DNA of 64,000 bases from Candidatus Falkowbacteria bacterium (GTDB lineage Bacteria > Patescibacteriota > Patescibacteriia > Patescibacteriales > UBA12465): the NCBI GenBank assembly GCA_037137655.1, contig JBAXJX010000001.1, positions 353,188 to 417,187 on the forward strand, read 5' to 3'. Each line of letters starts with the position of its first letter. Position 1 is the first letter of the stretch. Below the pieces are notes generated by a model. That model did not search any database. It was not told the origin of the DNA and worked only from the letters and a program-made list of their open reading frames with translations. Below, piece after piece: positions 4,450-28,019 of this stretch. Both the position numbers and the translations under genes were made by a program.

Positions 4450-5124
4450 TTATTTTTTCAAATCCATTTTATAGCCATGACCAGAAATATTATAAATAAG
4501 ATTTGAGCGTTTATTAATATTAATCTTTTTCCGAAGCTTTAAAATATGTGACTCGACGGTATTAGAGAAGGGATCAACTTCCATTTCCCAAACATGCTCC
4601 ATAATCATAGCGCGCGACATCGGCTTACCTTGATTTTGTAATAAATATTTAAGCAAACAAAATTCCTTTTTTGTTAAATATATTTCTTTATTACCGCGCC
4701 AAACTTTATGTCGAGCGTCATCAATAATTAAATCACCAATAGAAGTTATTGGAGCCTCAATCTTGCCGGGGCGACGAAGTAGGGCGCGAACTCGAGCTAA
4801 TAACTCTTCAAAGACAAATGGCTTGCCAAGGTAATCATCAACTCCAATTTCAAAAGCCTTAAGTTTATCGTGCATTTCCGCATTAACGGTTAACATGATT
4901 ATAGGCATGGTTTTACCATCAGCCCGAATTTCTCGGACCACCTCATCACCATTTTGAGTGGGCAGGGAATAATCAACAATAATCAAATCGTACTCATTGG
5001 TGCGCGCTAAAAAAGAACCTTTAGCACCATCAATACATTCGTCAACCACAAAAAACTCTGACTCCAAGCTCATTTTTAAAAACTTACTAATGTCGAGATC
5101 GTCCTCAATGATTAGAATTTTCAT
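4450..5124 (-). CDS. OmpR/PhoB-family DNA-binding response regulator
   Basis: MKILIIEDDLD receiver start, phospho-acceptor IIVDYSLP, winged-helix C-terminus (LTKKEFCLLKYLLQN..GHGYKM). I chose the internal ATG at 5122-5124. The track ORF runs to 5250 through a hydrophobic junk extension. Confidence 0.9.
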   Translation of the reverse strand: MKILIIEDDLDISKFLKMSLESEFFVVDECIDGAKGSFLARTNEYDLIIVDYSLPTQNGDEVVREIRADGKTMPIIMLTVNAEMHDKLKAFEIGVDDYLGKPFVFEELLARVRALLRRPGKIEAPITSIGDLIIDDARHKVWRGNKEIYLTKKEFCLLKYLLQNQGKPMSRAMIMEHVWEMEVDPFSNTVESHILKLRKKININKRSNLIYNISGHGYKMDLKK

Positions 5125-5250
5125 AGCGATTTTTGTTAATAATAAATAATAACAAATTATAATAAAAAGTAAATAACTTTTTTCTAAACTTGAGTCTAAT
5201 AAAAAAACCCTCGATTTTATGAGGGTTTTTGAGATGTTTTTGTCTAGCAA

Positions 5251-5745
5251 TTAATGTTTGCCGACTTTTGTTTTGGAATTAGTTATTTTTTCCACAACGA
5301 CGTTAGCCTTGGCCATATTTTGCAAGTCCATTTCGTCGATTTCGTCTTGCGGAATAATACCGGAAAATTCAGTTGTAACTAGTCGTTTAATATCATCTTC
5401 GGCTACTTGTTGTTTGACGAAGGGATATTTTTTAATTTTAGAATTTAACCACCCAATAACTTGTTTTAAGTTTTGGGGGGAATTAAAATACTTAATTACT
5501 TGACTGGCAAAATTTGAATCTTTTTCCTCAGCACTATTGTAAAGGAATTTGCTTTCAGCTGGAATCAGCTTTGATTTACCATTATAATCCAAGTACCAAA
5601 CTATTGCTTTTTGTGTAATATAGTCTTTCCAGCTTAGACCGGGAAACCATTTACTTATACTTGGCTCTGGTGTTTCTTGAGCCGAAACCATATTTGTACT
5701 TATCAAACTAATGACAAGTAAACTAATTATAAAAGAACTTTTCAT
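5251..5745 (-). CDS. Secreted hypothetical protein
   Basis: ATG at 5743-5745 is preceded by GGAGGT. Signal peptide MKSSFIISLLVISLISTNMVSA. No recognisable family. Confidence 0.55.
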   Translation of the reverse strand: MKSSFIISLLVISLISTNMVSAQETPEPSISKWFPGLSWKDYITQKAIVWYLDYNGKSKLIPAESKFLYNSAEEKDSNFASQVIKYFNSPQNLKQVIGWLNSKIKKYPFVKQQVAEDDIKRLVTTEFSGIIPQDEIDEMDLQNMAKANVVVEKITNSKTKVGKH

Positions 5746-5821
5746 GATAACCTCCAATTTTAGTGAATAAACTATATTAACACTATAATTACAATTTGTC
5801 AAGATATCAGCGGTTTATAAA

Positions 5822-5850
5822 TTGACAATGCTTAAATTTTATGCTATTAT
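5822..5850 (+). promoter_or_regulatory. Sigma70-type promoter; the transcript is probably leaderless
   Basis: TTGACA (5822-5827), 17-nt spacer ending in TGc, TATTAT (5845-5850). The ATG at 5857 lies 6 nt after the -10 and has no Shine-Dalgarno. Confidence 0.6.
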
Positions 5851-5856
5851 AGCTTT

Positions 5857-7899
5857 ATGAACAAAATTACAAAAATCATCACAATCATATCTTTTTTGAC
5901 TTTATTGTTACCGCTCTCGGCTAATGCTGAATCTTTAGCTATAAGTCCAAAAAATCCCCGCCTAGCCAATTATTTTTTGAAATGGACGATTGAGGATAAT
6001 GAAGTAGCTCAACTCGCTAAATGGGACGTTTTAATCTTGGATATGGATGTCCAGGAGAATAGCCGGGCTAATCTTCAAAAAATTAGACAATTAAACCCAA
6101 AAATAAAAATCCTAGCTTATATTGGATCACAAGAAGCTAATGCTGATATCTACTCTAACCAATGGGCAAAATACGGTGTTCTAAAAAAACGCTTAGTTGA
6201 TAATATTCCGGATGGTTGGTGGATGAAAGATTCGAGTGGTGCTCGAGTATCATTTTGGCCAGGGAACTACCTTTTAAACGTTTCAGATGGTTGTTTAACT
6301 AATACTAGTGGCCAACGCTGGAATGATTATTTACCTCAATTCGTCAGCAGTCAAATCTTAAGCACTGGCTTATGGGACGGTGTCTTTTATGATAGTCTTT
6401 GGGGCGATGTCACTTGGTTTAAACGTAATTTAGATATTGATAATAATAAAAATATCAGCAGCGAGGCTGATATAAATAATAAATGGTCATCTGGCATGAA
6501 AGAAATTATTGCCAAAACCAGAGATATTAACGCCGGTAAAAATTATATTATTCTTGGTAACGCTAACGTTTTCTTTCCATATCAAAGCAACTTAAATGGC
6601 ATGATGCTAGAAGGCTTTCCAAGCGCCTGGGAAGCTGGTGGTACTTGGTCCGGTTCGATGACCACTTATGCCAAACTTGGAAAAATTAATCTTGATCCTA
6701 AAATTACTATTTTAAATAGCTTCAACAAGAATCAAAATGACTTTGCTAAAATGCGTTTTGGCTTAGCTAGCACCTTACTCGATGATCATGGCTACTACAG
6801 TTATGATTATGATGTTAGTAATCATGGCCAATTATGGTGGTATGACGAGTATGATGTTAGTTTGGGTAATCCAACACTTCCAGCTTATAACGTTTTAGAT
6901 AAAACCAATACGACCTATAAACCTGGTCTATGGCGCCGTGATTATGAGAATGGTATTGTCATCGTAAACTCAACTAAGGACTTACAACGTTACATATTTA
7001 CAAAAGAAGAATTTGAAAAAATAAACGGTACCCAAGATCGCAGCGTTAACAATGGCACAATTATTAACTATATAAAAATAAACCCTGGTGACGGCATAGT
7101 ATTACTGCGCCGAAAATCTGACATAGTTAACACCAGTTTTTACAATGGTAATTTCGTTAGAGTTTTTAACTATTCTGGCCAACAAGTCCGCAATGGTTTT
7201 TTCTCATACTTAGATAGCTTCCCGGGCGGCAACCAAATCATTAAAGCCAATATTGACGGTGACAAGAGCTTGGAATATTTAAGTGATAGTCAAGGTAAAA
7301 TTTTATTAACCAAGGACGGAAAAAGAGTTAAAAATTTTGAACCATACGGAAAACTATATAAAGGTAATATTTTCATGGCCATTTCCGACTTTGATAATAA
7401 TGGAAAATATGAGATAATTAGTGGAACTGGAAAGGGTGGTAGCTCACAAGTAGTCGTTATGGGAAGTGACGGAAAAATCATTAACAGCTTCTTTGCTTAC
7501 GACAAAAAATTTAAAGGTGGTGTTAGTGTGGCGAGTGGTAATATTGGCGGTGACAGTAAAAAAGAAATTGTGACTGGTGCCGGCCCAGGTGGCGGTCCAG
7601 AAATTAGAATTTTCAGTCAAACTGGTCAACTTTTTTCCAAATTCATGGCTTACGACAAAAACTTTAAAGGTGGCGTTAGCGTGGCCGTTGGTGATGTTAA
7701 CGGTGATGGTCAAAATGAAATTGTGACTGGCGCAGGCGCAGGCGGTGGTCCAGAAGTTAGAATTTTTGATAAGAACGGAAAATTACTGAAAAAATTCATG
7801 GCCTATGATGCTAATATTAAAACTGGAGTCAAGGTTAGCGTTGAAGATATTGATAACAATGGAACTCAAGAAATTTTAGTAAGCTCAGCTAATTTCTAA
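5857..7899 (+). CDS. Secreted protein: GH114-like TIM-barrel glycosidase-like domain plus C-terminal FG-GAP/VCBS repeats
   Basis: Signal peptide. N-terminal motifs WDVLILDMD, KILAYIGSQE, WDGVFYDSLWGD resemble GH114/GHL-type hydrolases (from memory, weak). The C-terminus has four or more repeats of FxAYDxxFKGGVSVAxGDxxGDxxxEIVTGAGxGGGPExRIF. Confidence 0.55.
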   Translation: MNKITKIITIISFLTLLLPLSANAESLAISPKNPRLANYFLKWTIEDNEVAQLAKWDVLILDMDVQENSRANLQKIRQLNPKIKILAYIGSQEANADIYSNQWAKYGVLKKRLVDNIPDGWWMKDSSGARVSFWPGNYLLNVSDGCLTNTSGQRWNDYLPQFVSSQILSTGLWDGVFYDSLWGDVTWFKRNLDIDNNKNISSEADINNKWSSGMKEIIAKTRDINAGKNYIILGNANVFFPYQSNLNGMMLEGFPSAWEAGGTWSGSMTTYAKLGKINLDPKITILNSFNKNQNDFAKMRFGLASTLLDDHGYYSYDYDVSNHGQLWWYDEYDVSLGNPTLPAYNVLDKTNTTYKPGLWRRDYENGIVIVNSTKDLQRYIFTKEEFEKINGTQDRSVNNGTIINYIKINPGDGIVLLRRKSDIVNTSFYNGNFVRVFNYSGQQVRNGFFSYLDSFPGGNQIIKANIDGDKSLEYLSDSQGKILLTKDGKRVKNFEPYGKLYKGNIFMAISDFDNNGKYEIISGTGKGGSSQVVVMGSDGKIINSFFAYDKKFKGGVSVASGNIGGDSKKEIVTGAGPGGGPEIRIFSQTGQLFSKFMAYDKNFKGGVSVAVGDVNGDGQNEIVTGAGAGGGPEVRIFDKNGKLLKKFMAYDANIKTGVKVSVEDIDNNGTQEILVSSANF

Positions 7900-7915
7900 A
7901 ATAAAATATAAAAAT

Positions 7916-9604
7916 ATGCTCAAATACTTAAAACGACGACACGAAAAACATTATAAAGGTAAACCATTCCATTTGTTTGCGGATATCTTTTTTGTCTTAA
8001 CCATAATTACATTGTTAATCACTTTTTTTGTCATTAAAAATTGGCAACCAAAAGCAACGGTCAGCGTTAGTATTAGTGGCCCAAGTAAAATAAGTAGTGG
8101 CACAACCAACGACTTTACTTTTAAATATCAAGCCAATCAAGATACAAAAAATAATGTTTTAAATTTAAATTTACCAAACAATTTCACTATTACTGGAGTT
8201 GAGCCAACCAGCACTTATGACATTAAAACTAATTCCTTAACTATTGGAGATTTAAAACAAGGACAATCGGGTGAATTTAAAATTCATAGTATAATTTCTG
8301 GCGCCATAAATCATGATGCCCAGCTTTTTTCCAGCCTTACTTGTGATCAATGTGGCACAGGAATCTTGAGTTACTTTGATTATAATATCAACGATTCTGC
8401 TTTAAGTATCGAGACAGAACTACCGGATAAAATCTATAACAATATTGAATTTAGCGGTAAGTTAAAAGTTAAAAACAATGGCGCTACCACGACTGATGAG
8501 ATAAAATTAGTCATTGATAAACAATTACAATTCAGAGGTCTTGAATCTGGTGTAAATGACAATACTTTAATTATTAAAAATCTTGCTCCCGGACAAACCA
8601 AAGATATTAATTTCACGGCTATTAGCAGTTCCGGTGTTGGTCTTAAAAATATTACCATTAGTACCTATCTAATAATCGACGGAGAAGAATTAAAGCAACT
8701 TGATAAGCTTGTCGCGCTTAATGTGGGCGAATCAAATTTTAAACTATCAATTACACCTGATAAAAATACTGCTCGAGGCGGGGAAAGCATAAACTACTTA
8801 ATAAACTTTCAAAACAAGGAGGCTAGTCAATTATCCAATATTAAATTTAGCCTTTTTTCTGGCCACAATGATTTTGAGATAAGCTCTATTAAACTACTTG
8901 ATTTTGATAAAAAAACGACACTTAGCGATAAAATCATCAACATCACAGATTCATTAAATCCAGGTGAATCAGGTAAAATCAATATTACAGTTAACTACAA
9001 GAGATTAAAAACTGACTCTGAGGTAGAGTTACCGCTCGATGTTCTTGTGCAGTATAAAATTAGTGAACAAACTTTAAAATACCACCTAATTTCTGATAAG
9101 ACAAAAATTTTATCGAGTCTAAAAGCTTCAGCCATGGTTCGTTATTACAGCCAACAAGGTGATCAACTTGGTGTTGGACCAGTACCACCAATGGTTGATA
9201 TGGCCACAAAATATTGGGTATTTTTAGAAATAAACAACAAGGGAAATGACCTTGATAATATAACTGTTAGTGCTGACGTGCCAAGTGCTGCTATCTGGAC
9301 TGATAATAAAAGTTTGCTGTCCGGTGGTTTAAATTATAACAGCAACACTGGTCATGCCCTATGGCAAATGGATGAAATTTCTAAAGATGGTAACGGTGTT
9401 TATCGTGTTGCTTTTGAACTTGGTGTTATCCCGGAAATCAGTGATATCGGAAAAACTATTTCTCTGCTAAATAATATTCGCTATACCGCTCATGATAAAT
9501 TTTGCGATCAAACTATTTCTGGAAATTTAAATGATCTTGATACTAAAATTACCGACTCTCACTTTGGCGCTAATAACGGACTAGTGGTAGCGAACGAACA
9601 ATAA
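7916..9604 (+). CDS. Membrane-anchored surface protein with repeated beta-sandwich-like modules
   Basis: N-terminal TM anchor. Repeated segments of the type LNLPNNFTITG..GDLKQGQSGEFKI and IKNLAPGQTKDINFT, reminiscent of DUF11/CARDB repeats. Confidence 0.45.
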   Translation: MLKYLKRRHEKHYKGKPFHLFADIFFVLTIITLLITFFVIKNWQPKATVSVSISGPSKISSGTTNDFTFKYQANQDTKNNVLNLNLPNNFTITGVEPTSTYDIKTNSLTIGDLKQGQSGEFKIHSIISGAINHDAQLFSSLTCDQCGTGILSYFDYNINDSALSIETELPDKIYNNIEFSGKLKVKNNGATTTDEIKLVIDKQLQFRGLESGVNDNTLIIKNLAPGQTKDINFTAISSSGVGLKNITISTYLIIDGEELKQLDKLVALNVGESNFKLSITPDKNTARGGESINYLINFQNKEASQLSNIKFSLFSGHNDFEISSIKLLDFDKKTTLSDKIINITDSLNPGESGKINITVNYKRLKTDSEVELPLDVLVQYKISEQTLKYHLISDKTKILSSLKASAMVRYYSQQGDQLGVGPVPPMVDMATKYWVFLEINNKGNDLDNITVSADVPSAAIWTDNKSLLSGGLNYNSNTGHALWQMDEISKDGNGVYRVAFELGVIPEISDIGKTISLLNNIRYTAHDKFCDQTISGNLNDLDTKITDSHFGANNGLVVANEQ

Positions 9605-9625
9605 TCTATAATCAACTTTCAACTA

Positions 9626-9657
9626 CAAAAAACGTCTCATTTCTGGGGCGTTTTTTA
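9626..9657 (+). terminator. Rho-independent terminator
   Basis: aacgtctc-atttct-ggggcgtt hairpin (with G-U pairs), followed by tttttt. Confidence 0.6.
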
Positions 9658-9724
9658 TAATTGAAAATCTTGTTTATATTTAGATAAAATGCTAAGATTA
9701 TAATAATTAAAATTGTTTTAAGCT

Positions 9725-10867
9725 ATGATTGATTTTTTCCGAAAGCTAATTAAGCCTAAATATTGGCCTCTAAACGAAATCCAAATAATTAAACGCAATA
9801 TTTTAGAAAATTTTGCTTATTTACAGTCCATCCAAAAAGATGCGACTATTTTTCCGGTTTTAAAATCCAATGCTTATGGCCACGGCCTAAAAGAGCTTTG
9901 CCAAATACTAAATGAGTCATCAGCCAAGGCCGTTATTGTTGACTCTTTTCCAGAAGCTCAAATTGCTTATAAAAATTTCCGAAAAAAAGTTATCATCTTA
10001 AATGAAATGCCACTTCAAGCTTACGGTTATTGTCGGCTCGATCGCAGCGAGTTTTGCGTTTACAATTTAGCCACCATTAAACACTTAGCTGACAAATATC
10101 CAGGTGCTTTTATTCATCTGTTTGTTAACACTGGCATGAACCGAGAGGGAATTGGCAACTTTAAAGAGTTTATGGGACAGGCTAAAAAACATTTAAACAA
10201 ACTTAATGTTGTTGGTTTATGTTCTCACCTAGCCTCAGCGGAAATAAGTTCTGATTTAAACGACAAACAATTGAATAACTTTTTAAACTATTTAGAAATT
10301 TTAAATAATTCTGGATTTCATCCTAAAATTGTTCACCTAGGAAATTCAGCTGGTATCTTCACTATAAATAACCCCAAAATAAACGCTTACCGCGCCGGGA
10401 TTGCGCTTTACGGCTACAACATGTTTTCACCTGAACACCCAGCCTACAAGGCTGCCAGTGGCCTAAAACCAGCCCTCAGACTACTATCAACCGTTTCCGC
10501 TACCCAAGATTTAAAACCAGGAGATTCCGCCTCTTATAATGAAAGTTATATTGCTACCAAAGCCACCAAAATTGCCACTATTCCATTCGGTTACTATGAA
10601 GGACTTGATCGAAGGCTGTCGAGTCTAGGCGAATTTAAAATCATGAACAACAAACCATTCTTTGCTAAAATTGCCGGACGGGTTTGTATGAATTTAACTT
10701 GTCTTGATTGCCAAGATAACGACGTGGCGATAGGGGATAGAGTAGAGCTAATATCGCTTGATAATAGCGCACCAAACTCCGTTAACAATCTAGCTAAACT
10801 TGAGAACACTATATCTTATGAAATATTAACCGATCTACAATCTAACATTCATCGGGAAATAATATAA
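9725..10867 (+). CDS. alr: Alanine racemase
   Basis: PLP-lysine motif PVLKSNAYGHGL. Length 380 aa. C-terminal GYYEGLDRRLS..GRVCMN motifs. Confidence 0.9.
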   Translation: MIDFFRKLIKPKYWPLNEIQIIKRNILENFAYLQSIQKDATIFPVLKSNAYGHGLKELCQILNESSAKAVIVDSFPEAQIAYKNFRKKVIILNEMPLQAYGYCRLDRSEFCVYNLATIKHLADKYPGAFIHLFVNTGMNREGIGNFKEFMGQAKKHLNKLNVVGLCSHLASAEISSDLNDKQLNNFLNYLEILNNSGFHPKIVHLGNSAGIFTINNPKINAYRAGIALYGYNMFSPEHPAYKAASGLKPALRLLSTVSATQDLKPGDSASYNESYIATKATKIATIPFGYYEGLDRRLSSLGEFKIMNNKPFFAKIAGRVCMNLTCLDCQDNDVAIGDRVELISLDNSAPNSVNNLAKLENTISYEILTDLQSNIHREII

Positions 10868-10877
10868 AAATCAAAAT

Positions 10878-11876
10878 ATGTCAAGCATGGAAATAAGAAG
10901 TTATTACGAAAACAAAGGGAATATCAAACAAGACTACAGTCGAAAAAGTCTGCAAAATCCGTTTTACGGTAAACGGGGAAATTCCAACAAAAATATCTTC
11001 GGCAATTTTAAAATTATTTTAATTGCTGCGGTTTTTTTTATTATTTTATTATTTTGGTTTTTTTTATTTTCACCAGTGTTTAATATTAGATCTGTAAAAA
11101 TTGATGGATTAATTCGAACCAACGAATCAGATGTTTCCAGTATTATTCAAAATCAAATAGCGAGTCAAAGGGCTTTAATATTTTCGCAAAAAAATATCAT
11201 TATTTTTAACAAGGGAAAAGCTATTAATGATCTTTTAGATAAATTTGGCTTTCTCGATGTTTCTATTAAAAAAAGCATAACTGGCAACTTAAATATTTCT
11301 GTCCACGAACGAGAATATGCCTTTATTTGGGGTGAGAATGGTGATTACTATTATATTGATAAAGATGGTCATGTTATCAATAAAATTCCAAGTAATTTTA
11401 CCCCGATTGCCAATTTAAATATTATACCGAGTGTAAGCACTAGCACCGATTTAAATGCTAGCAGCACTGATATTGCCAGCGCTCCAGTGCCAGATGTTTT
11501 AAGTATCCAAAAGGAAGCCTTAATTGAAGTTAAAAAAAATAATAAAGATAATTATTCAATTATAGACAATCTATATAATCCTTTAATAAAAAATGATATA
11601 ATTACTATTGATCCGATCTATCTGGACTTTGTTAATAAAATTAGCAAAATTATGGATGCTGAGGCCGATCATAGTTTATGGGTTAGTCGTTTTATCATAG
11701 ACTCAGATATTGACACTATAAAAGCCCAGTTAAATTCCGGCCTAACCATCTACTTTAGTGTCAAACAAGTGCCAGAAGACCAAATAAAGAGCTTAACAGC
11801 ACTTAAAGATAAATTAAATAAAACAATTAAGAAAAAAGTGGATCTGCGGTATGGTGATCGCATCTACTATGAATAA
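10878..11876 (+). CDS. FtsQ/DivIB-like cell division protein (POTRA domain)
   Basis: Single TM helix, then FNIRSVKIDGLIRTNESDV....NLNISVHEREYAFIW, a typical POTRA pattern. Confidence 0.55.
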   Translation: MSSMEIRSYYENKGNIKQDYSRKSLQNPFYGKRGNSNKNIFGNFKIILIAAVFFIILLFWFFLFSPVFNIRSVKIDGLIRTNESDVSSIIQNQIASQRALIFSQKNIIIFNKGKAINDLLDKFGFLDVSIKKSITGNLNISVHEREYAFIWGENGDYYYIDKDGHVINKIPSNFTPIANLNIIPSVSTSTDLNASSTDIASAPVPDVLSIQKEALIEVKKNNKDNYSIIDNLYNPLIKNDIITIDPIYLDFVNKISKIMDAEADHSLWVSRFIIDSDIDTIKAQLNSGLTIYFSVKQVPEDQIKSLTALKDKLNKTIKKKVDLRYGDRIYYE

Positions 11877-11882
11877 AAATAT

Positions 11883-12038
11883 ATGAACATGAATAGTGAA
11901 AAACTTTTTAAATTTGTGTTTGGTAGTGCGATTTTTGTTTTTTGTTTAGTAACTATCGGACTATTTTTAATAATCCTAAAAATTGCTTTAATCTTTACAC
12001 CAAGCATTAATTTAATGGGGTTAGTGATTAGTTATTAG
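11883..12038 (+). CDS. Possible 51-aa hydrophobic micro-protein
   Basis: ATG..TAG ORF read by hand (MNMNSEKLFKFVFGSAIFVFCLVTIGLFLIILKIALIFTPSINLMGLVISY). One or two TM helices. Too short to appear in the ORF track. Confidence 0.3.
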   Translation: MNMNSEKLFKFVFGSAIFVFCLVTIGLFLIILKIALIFTPSINLMGLVISY

Positions 12039-12104
12039 TTATTAGTACTTTAAGTATTATATATCAAATAAACGGCTGTAAAGCCTAAAAAGATATATAA
12101 CAAT

Positions 12105-12143
12105 AGGTGGATTAATATACATTATGCGAAGTATTGTATATCA
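12105..12143. other. dif-like Xer recombination site
   Basis: 12105-12132 reads AGGTGGATTAA-TATACA-TTATGCGAAGT. Its reverse complement shares 16 contiguous nt (CGCATAATGTATATTA) with E. coli dif GGTGCGCATAATGTATATTATGTTAAAT. It overlaps an imperfect inverted repeat, TAATATACATTA (12113-12124) and TATTGTATATCA (12132-12143). Confidence 0.55.
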
Positions 12144-12181
12144 CCGAATTTAAGCATTTAAAACATTTAAGGTATTTCCCT

Positions 12182-13132
12182 ATGGCTAAAGCGATAATAA
12201 AATATCTTGGCGACTTTATTGACTACTGTGAAATTGAAAAAGGTTTATCAGTTAAGACTCAAGAAAATTATTCACGATTTTTAAACAAATTTTTTAAATG
12301 GCTAAAAAGTAGCGACTTAGCCGAATTAACTCCAGATCAATTAAGTGATGATCATATTTGGCGCTACCGTTTATTTTTGTCTCGCTTCGTTGACCCTGTC
12401 AATAAAAAATTATTAAAAAAGAGCACTCAGAACTACTACTTGATTTCCCTGCGCAGTTTATTAGAATTTTTTGTCGAAAAAAATATTACTTCTCTACCGC
12501 CGTCAAAAGTAAAATTAGCTAAGGATCGGGCCGAGCGCGAAATAAAATTTTTAAAAATTGATCAACTAAAAAAATTATTAGAAGCCCCAAGTATTTTGGA
12601 TGTGCGCGGACTTCGTGATCGCTCAATTTTAGAGACCCTCTTCTCTACCGGACTTCGTGTTTCTGAGCTAACCAAAATTAATCGTGATGACCTGCGTTTA
12701 CGCGCCGCTTCAACCGATTTAGAAATGACTATAGTTGGAAAAGGTTCTAAGGTTAGAACAGTTTATTTTTCCGAAAGAGCGGTTAATATCATTAAAAAAT
12801 ACCTCGAGAAACGAACCGACATGGACCCTGCCCTGTTTATAAATTTTAAACCTGGTATCGCTAAAACCGACAAAGATCGCCGCCTATCCGTTAAAAGTGT
12901 CGAGGAATTAGTTAAAAAATATGTCCGCGTTTCCGGTCTACCGGTTAATGCGACGCCACATACTTTAAGACACTCATTTGCCACTGACTTACTAGCACAA
13001 GGAGTTGATTTGCGCCTTGTACAAGAGTTTCTGGGCCATAAAAATATCTCCACCACTCAAATCTATACTCACGTTACCAATAAACAATTACGCGATATTC
13101 ATAAAAAGGTTCACAATCAAAGCCAGTTTTAA
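12182..13132 (+). CDS. Tyrosine recombinase, Xer family
   Basis: SAM-like N-domain. Catalytic motifs GLRVSEL, HTLRHSFATDLL, LGHKNISTTQIYTHV. I prefer the ATG at 12182 over the TTG at 12134, which would overlap the dif-like site. Confidence 0.85.
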   Translation: MAKAIIKYLGDFIDYCEIEKGLSVKTQENYSRFLNKFFKWLKSSDLAELTPDQLSDDHIWRYRLFLSRFVDPVNKKLLKKSTQNYYLISLRSLLEFFVEKNITSLPPSKVKLAKDRAEREIKFLKIDQLKKLLEAPSILDVRGLRDRSILETLFSTGLRVSELTKINRDDLRLRAASTDLEMTIVGKGSKVRTVYFSERAVNIIKKYLEKRTDMDPALFINFKPGIAKTDKDRRLSVKSVEELVKKYVRVSGLPVNATPHTLRHSFATDLLAQGVDLRLVQEFLGHKNISTTQIYTHVTNKQLRDIHKKVHNQSQF

Positions 13133-13146
13133 TAGTAATATCTCAA

Positions 13147-13178
13147 CAAAAAAAACTCCAATGCGGAGTTCTTTTTTA
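13147..13178. terminator. Bidirectional terminator
   Basis: aaaaaaaactcc-aatgc-ggagttctttttt, between convergent genes. Confidence 0.65.
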
Positions 13179-13187
13179 ATTTTATTT

Positions 13188-14414
13188 TTATTGTAAGTAT
13201 CCGGCTGGATCAACTGGAATACCGTCTTTTCTGATTTCAAAATGTAAATGAGGTCCAGTGGTAAATGGTCCAGCTCCAATTGAGCCTGGCATACCGCCAC
13301 TGTGACCAATAACTTGTCCTTGTGTCACATATTGATCAGCTTTCACGTTAACTGCGGACACGTGGCCATAAACACTAGAAAGACCGTCACCGTAAATAAT
13401 CATAATGTAAGCGTAGTTTTTAGAGCCATCAAATTTAACGCGGGCCACATAACCATCAGACACCGCATACAAATTAGAACCTTGACCAGCTTTAATATCC
13501 CAACCAGGATGTTCACCTAAAGTCTTTCTAAAAGGATAATCTGGATCATGAAATCTTGTAGTTATGTAATTTTTCGCTACCGGCCAAATAAAGCCACTGT
13601 AATTTAAGGCTGGTTTATTTTTTAAAGAATTAAGTTTATCTCGAACCTGTTTCTCAGTCTTAGAAATATCGGCTGACGCCTGGGCGTTTTCTTGTCTGGC
13701 AGCTGCCAATAAACTTTGGTATTGGCGCTCAGATTTATTGGTATTATCTAAGACGTAATTTTTATCACTTAACTCTGAATCTAAAATTGCTTTTTTCTCA
13801 TCCATCACTTTTTTTAGATCAGCGAGTTGTGCTTGTTTGTCGACAAGTAATTTTTCATTTTGTTCTAATTTATCCTTGTCAGTTTTTAAACCATCAACAC
13901 TTTTAATTATTTCCTCGTTAGTATTATCAAGATACTGCACCTGATTTATAAAATCAGCCAAGGAATTATTTAACAATAAAATTTCTAAAGTGGAAACTTT
14001 ATCATTCTTATACATAATCTTTAAAAGATTGGCGATATGATTTTTTTCTTGCTCAATTTGGTCGTTAGTATTTTGGATATCAATCGTCGTCCGCTTCATT
14101 TCTAAATTAGTTTCATCAATTTGCAAAGCAACAGTATCAATTTCGGATTGGGATTGAGCGATCTGCGCACTAAGGGTATCGATTTGATTACTTAAATCAC
14201 TTTTCTCTGACTCCTTTTGTAAAATTAAATCACTATACTGTTTTTGTCGGGCTTGAGCATCAACGATTCTTTGTTTGCTCGCGTTTATTTGATCGTTTAA
14301 TTTTTTAATTTCTTGATTCACTTCATCTTCTTGGCTACCCCAAGCAAAACTGGCTCCACGAAAGAGAGTAAAAATTAATAAGAGTAAAATTGAGATTTTA
14401 AATATTTTTTTCAT
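13188..14414 (-). CDS. M23 peptidoglycan metalloendopeptidase with long coiled-coil N-domain (EnvC-like architecture)
   Basis: Signal peptide, about 250 aa of Q/E/K-rich coiled coil, then the M23 motifs HPGWDI and GPHLHFEIR. Confidence 0.85.
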   Translation of the reverse strand: MKKIFKISILLLLIFTLFRGASFAWGSQEDEVNQEIKKLNDQINASKQRIVDAQARQKQYSDLILQKESEKSDLSNQIDTLSAQIAQSQSEIDTVALQIDETNLEMKRTTIDIQNTNDQIEQEKNHIANLLKIMYKNDKVSTLEILLLNNSLADFINQVQYLDNTNEEIIKSVDGLKTDKDKLEQNEKLLVDKQAQLADLKKVMDEKKAILDSELSDKNYVLDNTNKSERQYQSLLAAARQENAQASADISKTEKQVRDKLNSLKNKPALNYSGFIWPVAKNYITTRFHDPDYPFRKTLGEHPGWDIKAGQGSNLYAVSDGYVARVKFDGSKNYAYIMIIYGDGLSSVYGHVSAVNVKADQYVTQGQVIGHSGGMPGSIGAGPFTTGPHLHFEIRKDGIPVDPAGYLQ

Positions 14415-14454: not shown

Positions 14455-15639
14455 CTATTTAATTTTGTGTTTAGAAATATACTCATTAAACTTTTCTAAG
14501 AATATTTTAGTCGAGGCTCGGCGCAATGGATGAACTGAATTTAAAAGTTTATCACTACGCACCCATTGCCAGTCACAATGATCCCAATAATTTAATTTTA
14601 TATCTTTATCTTTCCCGACAAACTCTGCCAAAGCTAAACCTTGGCGTTGTCCTTTATAAGAAACATGCTTTTTATTTTTCTTACCAAACTTATATTTATA
14701 TAAATTGGGAAAGGTGGCCGAGATTTTATAATTAGAATTTCCTGTTTCCTCGCTCAACTCTCTAAAAGCGGCCACAGCTAAATTTTCATCATCGGTTCCG
14801 CCTTGAGGTAATTGCCAATGATCATTATCATCTTCCCTTTCAACTATTAAAACATAATAATCATCAGCTTCTTTTTTGTAAGCCAAGCAGGCAATATTAT
14901 CGCGATAAAACCAAGGATTAACTAAACGTGACTTTAAAAAAGCCAAAGAAAATTTTACAACCGCATTATAAATACGACCAGCTCGTTTTTTTGGATATTT
15001 AACTAGACGCCACAACCACTCCATGCCAAGTTGGCGCATTATTTTTGGAGCTCGAGTGGCCTTACCACTAACAAAATCAAAAGAACCACCAACACCAATA
15101 GCTAAACGTAAACCAAGAACATTGTGTAAATTATGATAAATAAATTTTTCCTGATGCGGTGCGCCAGTAGCAACAAACATAATATCAAATTCTTTCTCTT
15201 CTTTGCCCAGATTTGGCATCCTCATGGAATCAAGTTGAACACTTTTAACACAGAGTTTTAAATTGGGATATTTATCTTTAAGCGCCACTTGAATTTCGCG
15301 GTCGCAAGACAATCCATTGCAATGGTTAATTATTAAAACCCGTAAACCGCGCTCACTGGCCGTTTGTAATATTTCCAAACTTAAATCAGCACCAGTTAGT
15401 CGTGGAATTCTTTTCCCCAAAAGTCGCGCCACGAATTTCAAACCAACACCATCAATAAGTGATAAGTCGGTTTGATTTAATATGTAAAAATATTCCTCAT
15501 CTTTTTGAGCGGCCAATACTATTTCTGGATTTAATGTCGCCACAAAACGCGGTCGATTAGAGCGCAAAAAAATATCAATTCGTTCCCGAACTTCTTGTGC
15601 GCTAAATTCATTAACCTTAACACCTAAGATTTTTATCAT
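14455..15639 (-). CDS. Fusion: WecB/TagA/CpsF (GT26) glycosyltransferase + Nudix hydrolase
   Basis: N-terminal half: ILGVKVN..VATLNPEIVLAAQKD..IDGVGL..APHQEKF..VGGSFDF..RAPKIMRQLGMEWLWRL (GT26). C-terminal half: WQLPQGGTDDENLAVAAFRELSEETG (Nudix box, RppH-like WQxPQGG). ATG at 15637-15639 chosen. Confidence 0.75.
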   Translation of the reverse strand: MIKILGVKVNEFSAQEVRERIDIFLRSNRPRFVATLNPEIVLAAQKDEEYFYILNQTDLSLIDGVGLKFVARLLGKRIPRLTGADLSLEILQTASERGLRVLIINHCNGLSCDREIQVALKDKYPNLKLCVKSVQLDSMRMPNLGKEEKEFDIMFVATGAPHQEKFIYHNLHNVLGLRLAIGVGGSFDFVSGKATRAPKIMRQLGMEWLWRLVKYPKKRAGRIYNAVVKFSLAFLKSRLVNPWFYRDNIACLAYKKEADDYYVLIVEREDDNDHWQLPQGGTDDENLAVAAFRELSEETGNSNYKISATFPNLYKYKFGKKNKKHVSYKGQRQGLALAEFVGKDKDIKLNYWDHCDWQWVRSDKLLNSVHPLRRASTKIFLEKFNEYISKHKIK

Positions 15640-15739
15640 ATTCTCTATTATATGATTTTTTGCATAATTTAGCAAATTTTTTATTTGTCGGATTTTATTA
15701 AATATGTTAAAATTAAATTAATAATTATTATAAAAAAAT

Positions 15740-27473: not shown

Positions 27474-28019
27474 ATGGCCAAACAAACTCTAAACCAGGGG
27501 CGCCGCTGGTACGTTTTACACACCTACTCCGGTTATGAAGAAAACGTTGCCCGCAACTTAAGACAAAGAGTAGAAACTTTGGACATGGGCAATAAAATCT
27601 TCAGCGTTTTAGTTCCAACTGAAAAGAAAACTAAAATTAAAAACGGCAAACGTCGTATTATTGAAGAAAAGATCTTCCCTGGCTATGTCTTAGTAGAAAT
27701 GGAAGTGACTGACGAATCTTGGTATGTTGTTCGTAACACTCCAAATGTTACCGGTTTCATCGGCGTTGGTTCAACTCCAGTGCCAATTGGCGACGAAGAA
27801 GTTAAAGCTCTTAAGAAAAGAATGGGTGAAGAAGAACCAAGATTTAAAATCGACGTGGTCATGGGTGATGTGGTTAGAATTACTGAAGGTCCATTTAAAA
27901 ACTTGGAGGGTAAAATTACCAACATTGATGAAGCAAAAGGTAAAATCAAAGTTAACGTTTCTATGTTTGGTCGTGAAACTCCAGTCGAATTAGATTTCCT
28001 ACAAATTAAAAAAATATAA
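27474..28019 (+). CDS. nusG: Transcription termination/antitermination factor NusG
   Basis: RWYVLHTYSGYEENV NGN domain and KOW motif GDVVRITEGPFKNLEGKI. Confidence 0.95.
   Translation: MAKQTLNQGRRWYVLHTYSGYEENVARNLRQRVETLDMGNKIFSVLVPTEKKTKIKNGKRRIIEEKIFPGYVLVEMEVTDESWYVVRNTPNVTGFIGVGSTPVPIGDEEVKALKKRMGEEEPRFKIDVVMGDVVRITEGPFKNLEGKITNIDEAKGKIKVNVSMFGRETPVELDFLQIKKI

Follow-up and report, generated by a model that had tools for sequence, protein, structure and literature searches.

A dif-like site linked to a Xer-type recombinase gene in a Falkowbacteria-like member of the Patescibacteria

The 64-kb stretch of a Candidatus Falkowbacteria genome analysed here (contig JBAXJX010000001.1, hereafter the window, ~35% GC) contains a gene for a Xer-type tyrosine recombinase, preceded by an intergenic, non-coding 28-bp sequence that resembles the dif sites at which bacteria resolve chromosome dimers. 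The site occupies positions 12105–12132 and reads AGGTGGATTAATATACATTATGCGAAGT; in canonical orientation it lies on the minus strand, as ACTTCGCATAA-TGTATA-TTAATCCACCT. It is composed of a strong, xer-proximal arm TTATGCGAAGT (12122–12132, plus strand), which in reverse complement is the XerC-type arm ACTTCGCATAA, a 6-bp central or crossover region TATACA (12116–12121, plus strand), which in reverse complement is the TGTATA of Escherichia coli dif, and a weak distal arm AGGTGGATTAA (12105–12115, plus strand), which is variable among relatives. The xer gene (12182–13132, plus strand) was recognised with Pfam and NCBIfam hidden Markov models (HMMs) and encodes a protein of 316 amino acids. The mechanically called open reading frame (ORF, 12134–13132) begins with a TTG at 12134, and the conserved start is the ATG at 12182 (MAKAIIKYLGDF...), 49 nt after the site. 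A previous inspection of the letters of this DNA without database searches (the sequence-only reading) had reported the same sequence and coordinates for the site, which were correct on re-reading, and had placed the recombinase ATG 39–50 nt downstream, a range that includes the distance measured here.

For comparison with published dif sites we used the table of reference sequences in Carnoy & Roten 2009 (PMC2731167). The reverse complement of the site has 16 contiguous nt in common with the E. coli K12 dif (GGTGCGCATAATGTATATTATGTTAAAT), a match already noticed in the sequence-only reading and borne out by the published sequence, with 19 of the 28 positions matching overall, and it has 20 contiguous nt in common with the dif of Thiobacillus denitrificans (ACTTCGCATAATGTATATTATGTTAAAT). 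Strong arm and spacer together (ACTTCGCATAA-TGTATA) match the XerC arm and spacer of published beta-proteobacterial dif at 17/17 positions, and the strong arm is identical to the XerC arm of the dif sites of T. denitrificans and M. flagellatus. The canonical XerD arm TTATGTTAAAT is absent, and the XerD position is occupied by TTAATCCACCT in the window and by variable or mirror-image sequences in the relatives. Judged by its sequence, the site is half a canonical bacterial dif.

Related loci were collected by searching with an alignment of the recombinase, taking one genome per species, which gave 80 orthologous loci with proteins 65–79% identical; the DNA sampled comprised ~73 kb of the present genome and 20-kb slices of the relatives. 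Sites in the relatives were called with the 22-nt core ATTAATATACATTATGCGAAGT, allowing ≤4 mismatches. The core was found once in 75 of the 80 loci, all from Falkowbacteria-like genomes, always on the xer strand and upstream of the gene, 13–1129 nt before the mapped xer start, with a distance of 13–130 nt in most loci. The five loci without a site have ≤140 nt of upstream sequence in four cases and 755 nt in the fifth. Where another gene intervenes, the site is still conserved at a distance of 500–1100 nt from xer. Within the window the 28-mer occurs once at ≤3 mismatches, and a match was obtained in 0/100 shuffles. A weight matrix built from the 75 sites scored 33–47 bits on the primary sites, and no other position reached ≥12 bits among the 2.6 million positions of the 64-kb window and 81 loci, apart from reverse-strand readings of symmetric sites, leaving one site in the window and one per 20-kb locus in the 75 loci.

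The linkage also holds in the reverse direction, as scanning of metagenome contigs with the motif alone revealed a xer start within ~2 kb in 55 of the 68 matches that had ≥400 nt of downstream sequence. These included a more distant set, with xer genes of 49–57% identity, whose near-symmetric site is turned around with respect to xer; in contigs L109, L113, L120 and L123 (xer 54–57% identity) the same site stands before the start in flipped orientation. Such flipped sites at distant xer genes indicate that the module extends beyond the Falkowbacteria-like group. Among the 13 exceptions were two metagenome contigs of 62% GC (L132 and L133), which carry a canonical XerCD-type dif, ACTTCGCATAA-TRTATA-TTAAGTYAAAT, with the other arm (ATTTRAC...) being of canonical XerD type; by sequence these are ordinary XerCD dif sites from other phyla, and they show that strong arm and spacer are common well beyond the Patescibacteria. 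The proposal of the sequence-only reading that a dif-like site is served by the adjacent Xer is strongly supported, and its reservation about a repeated or unconserved motif fell away, with the motif being single-copy in the DNA sampled and conserved upstream of the orthologous xer genes.

Alignment of the 75 sites, which comprise 31 distinct 28-mers, gave an 11-6-11 anatomy, in which the conserved block is exactly 28 bp long with sharp edges, and the site is kept while the intergenic DNA around it is unconserved among relatives. The right arm TTATGCGAAGT is near-invariant, with two single-base variants. Of the spacers, 46 read TATACA and 23 TCTACA, with rarer variants in the rest. As the spacer is non-palindromic, the site has polarity. 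In the left arm, positions 1, 4 and 8–11 are kept and positions 2, 3 and 5–7 vary, with 11 sites in which this arm is a mirror of the right arm at 10–11 of 11 positions, as ACTTCGCTTAA or ACTTCGCATAA. The arms are asymmetric at position 8, with a T instead of the mirror A in 30 of the 31 distinct sites. The borders of conservation and the symmetric variants in relatives fix the 11-6-11 register. A second register had been suggested by the sequence-only reading on the basis of an overlapping imperfect palindrome; this palindrome, TAATATACATTA-N7-TATTGTATATCA (10/12, within 12105–12143), does exist, but its downstream half is unconserved in relatives, and it was rejected as an alternative 28-mer. 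Variation in the arms is one-sided and compensatory changes were never seen, which indicates a protein-binding site with a strong and a weak half-site rather than a selected hairpin. In one relative (L003, 9398–9425) the arms are perfectly symmetric, ACTTCGCATAA-TATACA-TTATGCGAAGT.

The recombinase matched Pfam Phage_integrase with 136.9 bits, together with a SAM-like N-terminal domain. In NCBIfam it scored almost equally with XerD (224.9 bits, cut-off 329.6) and XerC (223.9 bits, cut-off 335.15), followed by the archaeal XerA model XerA_Arch (200.8 bits, cut-off 220), XerS (117.1 bits, cut-off 267) and integron integrase (103.3 bits, cut-off 265), with all five scores below the respective cut-off. 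Of the solved structures, Pyrococcus abyssi XerA and E. coli XerD lie at the same distance (127 and 126 bits, respectively), and XerH (5JJV) is far off at 52.5 bits. In the catalytic domain, identity amounts to 47% with P. abyssi XerA, 40% with E. coli XerD and 35% with T. acidophilum XerA, values that are not decisive for assignment to XerA or XerD. Family signatures described by Cortez et al. 2010 are XRX for XerC, RQX for XerD and XKX for XerA; the sequence S-V-K-S of the present protein aligns with S-P-K-T of P. abyssi XerA and T-R-Q-T of XerD, and is of the XerA-type XKX, with the lysine of the signature (Lys238) ≥90% conserved in the family. The closest relatives of the recombinase are from Patescibacteria, mostly labelled Candidatus Falkowbacteria, and among the cluster representatives listed (at least 120) identity ranges from 67 to 91%, which at the sequence level is typical of a housekeeping gene. 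No second tyrosine recombinase was detected in the 64-kb window or within ±10 kb in the 80 loci.

The switch in gene orientation noted in the sequence-only reading was recovered with our own ORF call, with ~10 of 12 genes to the left of the site on the plus strand and 42 of 51 to the right on the minus strand. The genes converge precisely at 13132/13188, between xer and an M23 peptidase gene. On the left the plus orientation persists over ≥21 kb, of which 8.6 kb lie outside the window. The cumulative GC skew, taken raw, forms a plateau between 3.3 and 11.3 kb and reaches its maximum at ~8.3 kb. To separate replication skew from coding-strand bias, G was compared with C at four-fold degenerate sites. 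In genes to the right of the site, the coding-strand skew at these positions is 0.00 ± 0.05 on the minus strand versus -0.45 ± 0.12 on the plus strand, which indicates a real strand asymmetry with the top strand being the lagging strand there. The four plus-strand genes at 5857–11876 (-0.39) and xer (-0.51) are at the lagging value, and the two minus-strand genes at 4450–5802 (-0.43) are of lagging type too, with -0.17 for the plus-strand genes further left. The plus-strand genes of 5857–13132 hence look like lagging-strand genes of the right replichore. A change-point scan of the four-fold sites had its likelihood maximum at 5.5–6.0 kb, 8.4 log-likelihood units better than no switch, giving 5500–6500 as best estimate for the replication-associated GC-skew switch. 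Located at ~5.8 kb, at the divergent gene pair 5251–5802 (minus strand) and 5857–7899 (plus strand), this switch is away from both the convergence point (13.15 kb) and the site (12.1 kb). The sequence-only reading had proposed that this is the replication terminus, with a skew extremum near 12–13 kb; an extremum is indeed close by, but neither the switch nor the raw peak lies in that interval.

Among the relatives the signal is weaker. The sign of the raw skew changes from plus to minus in 34 of 50 loci, and in 41 of 47 loci the plus-strand genes on the left flank show less C skew than those on the right (p = 6e-8, for loci that are phylogenetically non-independent). The orientation switch seen in the relatives was rejected as evidence for a terminus, since the flanks are syntenic and represent one inherited arrangement rather than 50 independent observations. 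Two loci, L003 and L018 (site at 9849–9876 in the latter), stand alone in having several inserted minus-strand genes on the left side of the site together with a reversed raw skew on both flanks.

From these features we conclude that the site very probably functions as dif, and the reading that we favour as likely is that the site and the adjacent Xer form the chromosome dimer-resolution module of this Falkowbacteria-like patescibacterium. In such a module, Xer monomers would bind the two 11-bp arms, tightly on TTATGCGAAGT and more weakly and cooperatively on the degenerate distal arm. The two dif copies of a dimeric chromosome would synapse at cell division, and the recombinase would cleave where the asymmetric 6-bp spacer meets the arms and exchange two pairs of strands, thus restoring monomers, with the polarity of the reaction predicted to be set by the asymmetric spacer together with the arm asymmetry at position 8. 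The reaction may also depend on FtsK; no FtsK is encoded in the window.

Several observations weigh against a dimer-resolution module at this position. The skew switch lies ~6 kb to the left of the site. Placing it at the site itself was rejected for this genome, since in the four-fold-site data this costs 13 log units relative to the best point and fits worse than having no switch at all. The pooled likelihood for 37 relatives gave no switch at the site, with a heterogeneous displacement to either side. In 14 of 50 loci there is no change of sign in the raw skew, and the skew of the right flank is mixed in the relatives, being of lagging type in 30, leading type in 18 and neutral in 9 of 57 loci. 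In two complete chromosomes the site is found at 204 of 977 kb (CP066698.1) and at 85 of 896 kb (OW818634.1), as counted from the start of each record, positions that are in themselves uninformative. Finally, the weak arm matches the mirrored strong arm at only 5–6 of 11 positions in most genomes, and a second, arm-specific protein is possible. With regard to position, the site is 4–6 kb from the skew inflection, equivalent to ~0.5% of a roughly 1-Mb genome, and such an offset is normal, as accepted dif sites in Proteobacteria are 278 bp to 78 kb from the predicted terminus (Carnoy & Roten 2009, PMC2731167), and those of Legionella 89 bp to 79 kb. The skew pattern of the relatives fits a site which stays in the terminus region while the point where the forks meet wanders by kilobases. 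The site is probably terminus-proximal, a few kb at most from the skew switch associated with replication.

The difference between the arms is also the starting point for the best-surviving alternative, a two-recombinase dif in which the adjacent Xer binds the conserved XerC-type arm, and a second Xer paralogue encoded elsewhere binds the variable arm. Most bacteria use XerC and XerD (review PMC5357621), the conserved arm has the very sequence of a XerC arm, and only ~7% of the roughly 1-Mb genome is visible, all of which fit with a second paralogue. We nevertheless consider it unlikely. The XerD position holds an arm other than the widely conserved TTATGTTAAAT; among close relatives this arm changes although the Xer protein remains conserved, and some lineages, represented by the 11 mirror-image sites, simply have the strong arm twice. 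A genetic link between dif and xer has furthermore been put forward as a possible hallmark of single-recombinase systems (review PMC5357621), and no further recombinase was encountered in the DNA surrounding the sites. If the site is dif, both arms are probably served by a single recombinase that would form a homotetramer, as XerA, XerS and XerH do. [quoted passage not shown]

The short distance between the site and the mapped xer start in most loci could also reflect a purely regulatory operator, at which Xer or another protein controls transcription of xer without any recombination. This alternative can draw on isolated half-sites found 24–37 nt before the mapped xer start, next to a likely -10 box, in four loci where the full site is displaced to a distance of 180–1100 nt. 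An operator would not need the exact 11-6-11 geometry or the 17/17 identity to a dif arm and spacer, nor would it be expected to be kept 500–1100 nt away with a gene in between, and autoregulation could coexist with dif function; a role as operator only is therefore very improbable. The isolated half-sites read ACTTCGCATAA in L024 (3726–3736), L033 (9969–9979) and L046 (1243–1253), and ACTTCGCTTAA in L048 (2642–2652), with approximately one exact 11-mer match expected by chance over all loci combined. They could represent remnants of an old site or autoregulatory half-operators.

Recombinase genes adjoin their own site in many mobile elements, so that the site might alternatively be the attachment site of an integrated element, or of an element exploiting Xer, with the recombinase being the integrase of that element. 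The heterogeneous small ORFs found between site and xer in ~14 relatives could be taken in favour of such an element. The gene order at the locus is however alanine racemase (alr), an FtsQ-like gene, the site and xer, followed in convergent orientation by genes for an M23 peptidase, a TagA-NUDIX fusion, CorA and a glycosyltransferase, and alr, the FtsQ-like gene, the M23 peptidase gene and tagA remain syntenic with the locus across genomes with 65–79% identical proteins. Genes of phages, plasmids or transposases are absent from the window, a further full site is lacking within ±10 kb, and the motif had zero matches in 2.9 million viral contigs. This conserved chromosomal neighbourhood lacking phage, plasmid and transposon genes rules out an integrated element for practical purposes, and the probability that we leave to it is slight. 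The possibility raised in the sequence-only reading that the recombinase belongs to an integrated element with flanking att repeats was thus resolved in favour of a conserved housekeeping and cell-division neighbourhood, in which no such repeats flank the gene. Neither the matrix scan of the loci nor the scan of viral contigs revealed Xer-exploiting elements or a second copy of dif.

The inserted ORFs were found in L001, L002, L003, L008, L017, L021, L025, L039, L045, L046, L048, L055, L057 and L068, where between one and three unrelated ORFs of 100–270 amino acids separate the site from xer. Nearly all of these are on the minus strand, and a Pfam scan identified one acyltransferase, with the others scanned giving no match. 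No second full site flanks the ORFs inserted between site and xer. A bolder extension of the XerD-free reading above, and less likely than that reading, is that this variable slot reflects Xer-mediated capture of genes at dif.

Some Xer-like recombinases of Mollicutes drive DNA inversions, and the site is an imperfect inverted repeat, but a role as inversion (phase-variation) switch, or as folded hairpin such as an attC-like site or terminator, is the least probable of all explanations, given the single site per locus and hence the lack of an inversion partner, the one-sided variation of the arms without compensatory changes, and the score with the integron integrase HMM of 103 bits versus a cut-off of 265.

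Set against known systems, the locus is a linked gene-plus-site module like XerS/difSL, XerH/difH and Sulfolobus XerA/dif. The canonical XerCD/dif system has sites of the same 28-bp length, likewise divided into 11-bp arms and a 6-bp spacer. The strong arm and spacer of the present site are those of the dif of Thiobacillus and Methylobacillus, the site lies 4–6 kb from a local GC-skew switch, and the present recombinase scores equally on the XerC and XerD HMMs. In contrast to XerCD/dif, the present site has no XerD arm TTATGTTAAAT, the recombinase is under both equivalog cut-offs, the site is linked to xer while canonical xerC and xerD are unlinked to dif, and probably one recombinase is used instead of two. 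With the archaeal XerA/dif systems of Pyrococcus and Sulfolobus it shares the 28-bp site, 6-bp spacer and near-symmetric arms, as well as the XKX DNA-binding signature and the 47% identity of the catalytic domain to P. abyssi XerA. XerA acts as one recombinase, and in Sulfolobus the predicted dif is close to xerA (Cortez et al. 2010). The present host is however bacterial, its arm sequence is of the bacterial XerC type, and the score with the NCBIfam XerA model is below the cut-off.

The sequence-only reading had drawn an analogy with difSL/xerS and difH/xerH, which is right with regard to gene linkage, but recombinase and site are outside these families. XerS of streptococci and lactococci is a one-recombinase module of the terminus region, with the site adjoining the recombinase gene as it does here, but difSL has 31 bp, 11 of them in the central region, and XerS has 356 amino acids (PMC5357621), compared with 28 bp, a 6-bp spacer and 316 amino acids in the present system, in addition to the XerS HMM score of 117 versus 267. 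XerH of Helicobacter and Campylobacter also is a single recombinase with a gene-linked site and asymmetric arms; it differs in length (354–362 amino acids versus 316) and is distant from the present protein (52 bits to 5JJV), and difH resembles difSL rather than canonical dif. Judging from the protein scores, the length of the protein and a spacer of 6 instead of 11 bp, the present recombinase does not belong to the XerS or XerH family. It also differs from the integron integrase/attI system, as the HMM score is under the cut-off and there are no further sites in the loci.

The mechanism itself is already known, and the module described here is a variant of the well-known Xer/dif system. Full-text literature searches found no description of dif or of chromosome-dimer resolution in Patescibacteria, CPR (candidate phyla radiation) bacteria or Falkowbacteria. 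What had been reported for Patescibacteria was only at the protein level, in the form of the 'Cand' subgroup of Xer-related simple tyrosine recombinases of candidate phyla, which were suggested to be Xer stand-ins (Smyshlyaev et al. 2021). The present protein may correspond to this subgroup, which was classified from proteins only, whereas a recombination site and its gene linkage are described here. A defined 28-bp site provides a candidate sequence marker of the terminus region, which would help to orient and check assemblies of uncultured genomes. It is also a possible genetic tool for marker excision of the Xer-cise type, for the few groups doing genetics in this phylum, and adds a data point on the evolutionary relation of one- and two-recombinase Xer systems.

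The dif/xer pair is placed between two genes of the cell-division type, an FtsQ-like gene on the left and an EnvC-like M23 peptidase gene on the right. The left gene (10878–11876, plus strand) encodes a bitopic membrane protein that is probably FtsQ/DivIB-like, with a cytoplasmic N-terminus and one transmembrane helix; the weak Pfam match to FtsQ_DivIB_C (E=0.023) covers the full-length profile but is below the cut-off. This gene family (family 2) is directly left of the site in nearly all loci having a left flank. The right gene (13188–14414, minus strand) encodes a protein with a coiled coil and an M23 peptidase domain (EnvC/DipM-like), and belongs to a gene family (family 1) found in 72 loci. 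A hairpin terminator (13154–13170, plus strand) is located between the convergent xer and M23 peptidase genes, at the convergence point of gene orientation. Between the FtsQ-like gene and the site there is a 51-codon ORF (11883–12038, plus strand) for a very hydrophobic peptide (MNMNSEKLFKFVFGSAIFVFCLV...), and the TagA-NUDIX fusion (14455–15675, minus strand) is a single ORF in which a WecG/TagA-type glycosyltransferase domain is fused to a NUDIX hydrolase domain.

Elsewhere the window contains genes for CTP synthase, aminoacyl-tRNA synthetases, type IV pili, histidine kinases and ribonucleotide reductase, as well as nusG-rplK-rplA, the last of which are on the strand opposite to most of their neighbours. 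ARAGORN called an 87-nt tRNA-Trp at 27703–27789 (plus strand), inside the ORF 27474–28019 which encodes NusG (108 bits), and this call is probably a false positive.

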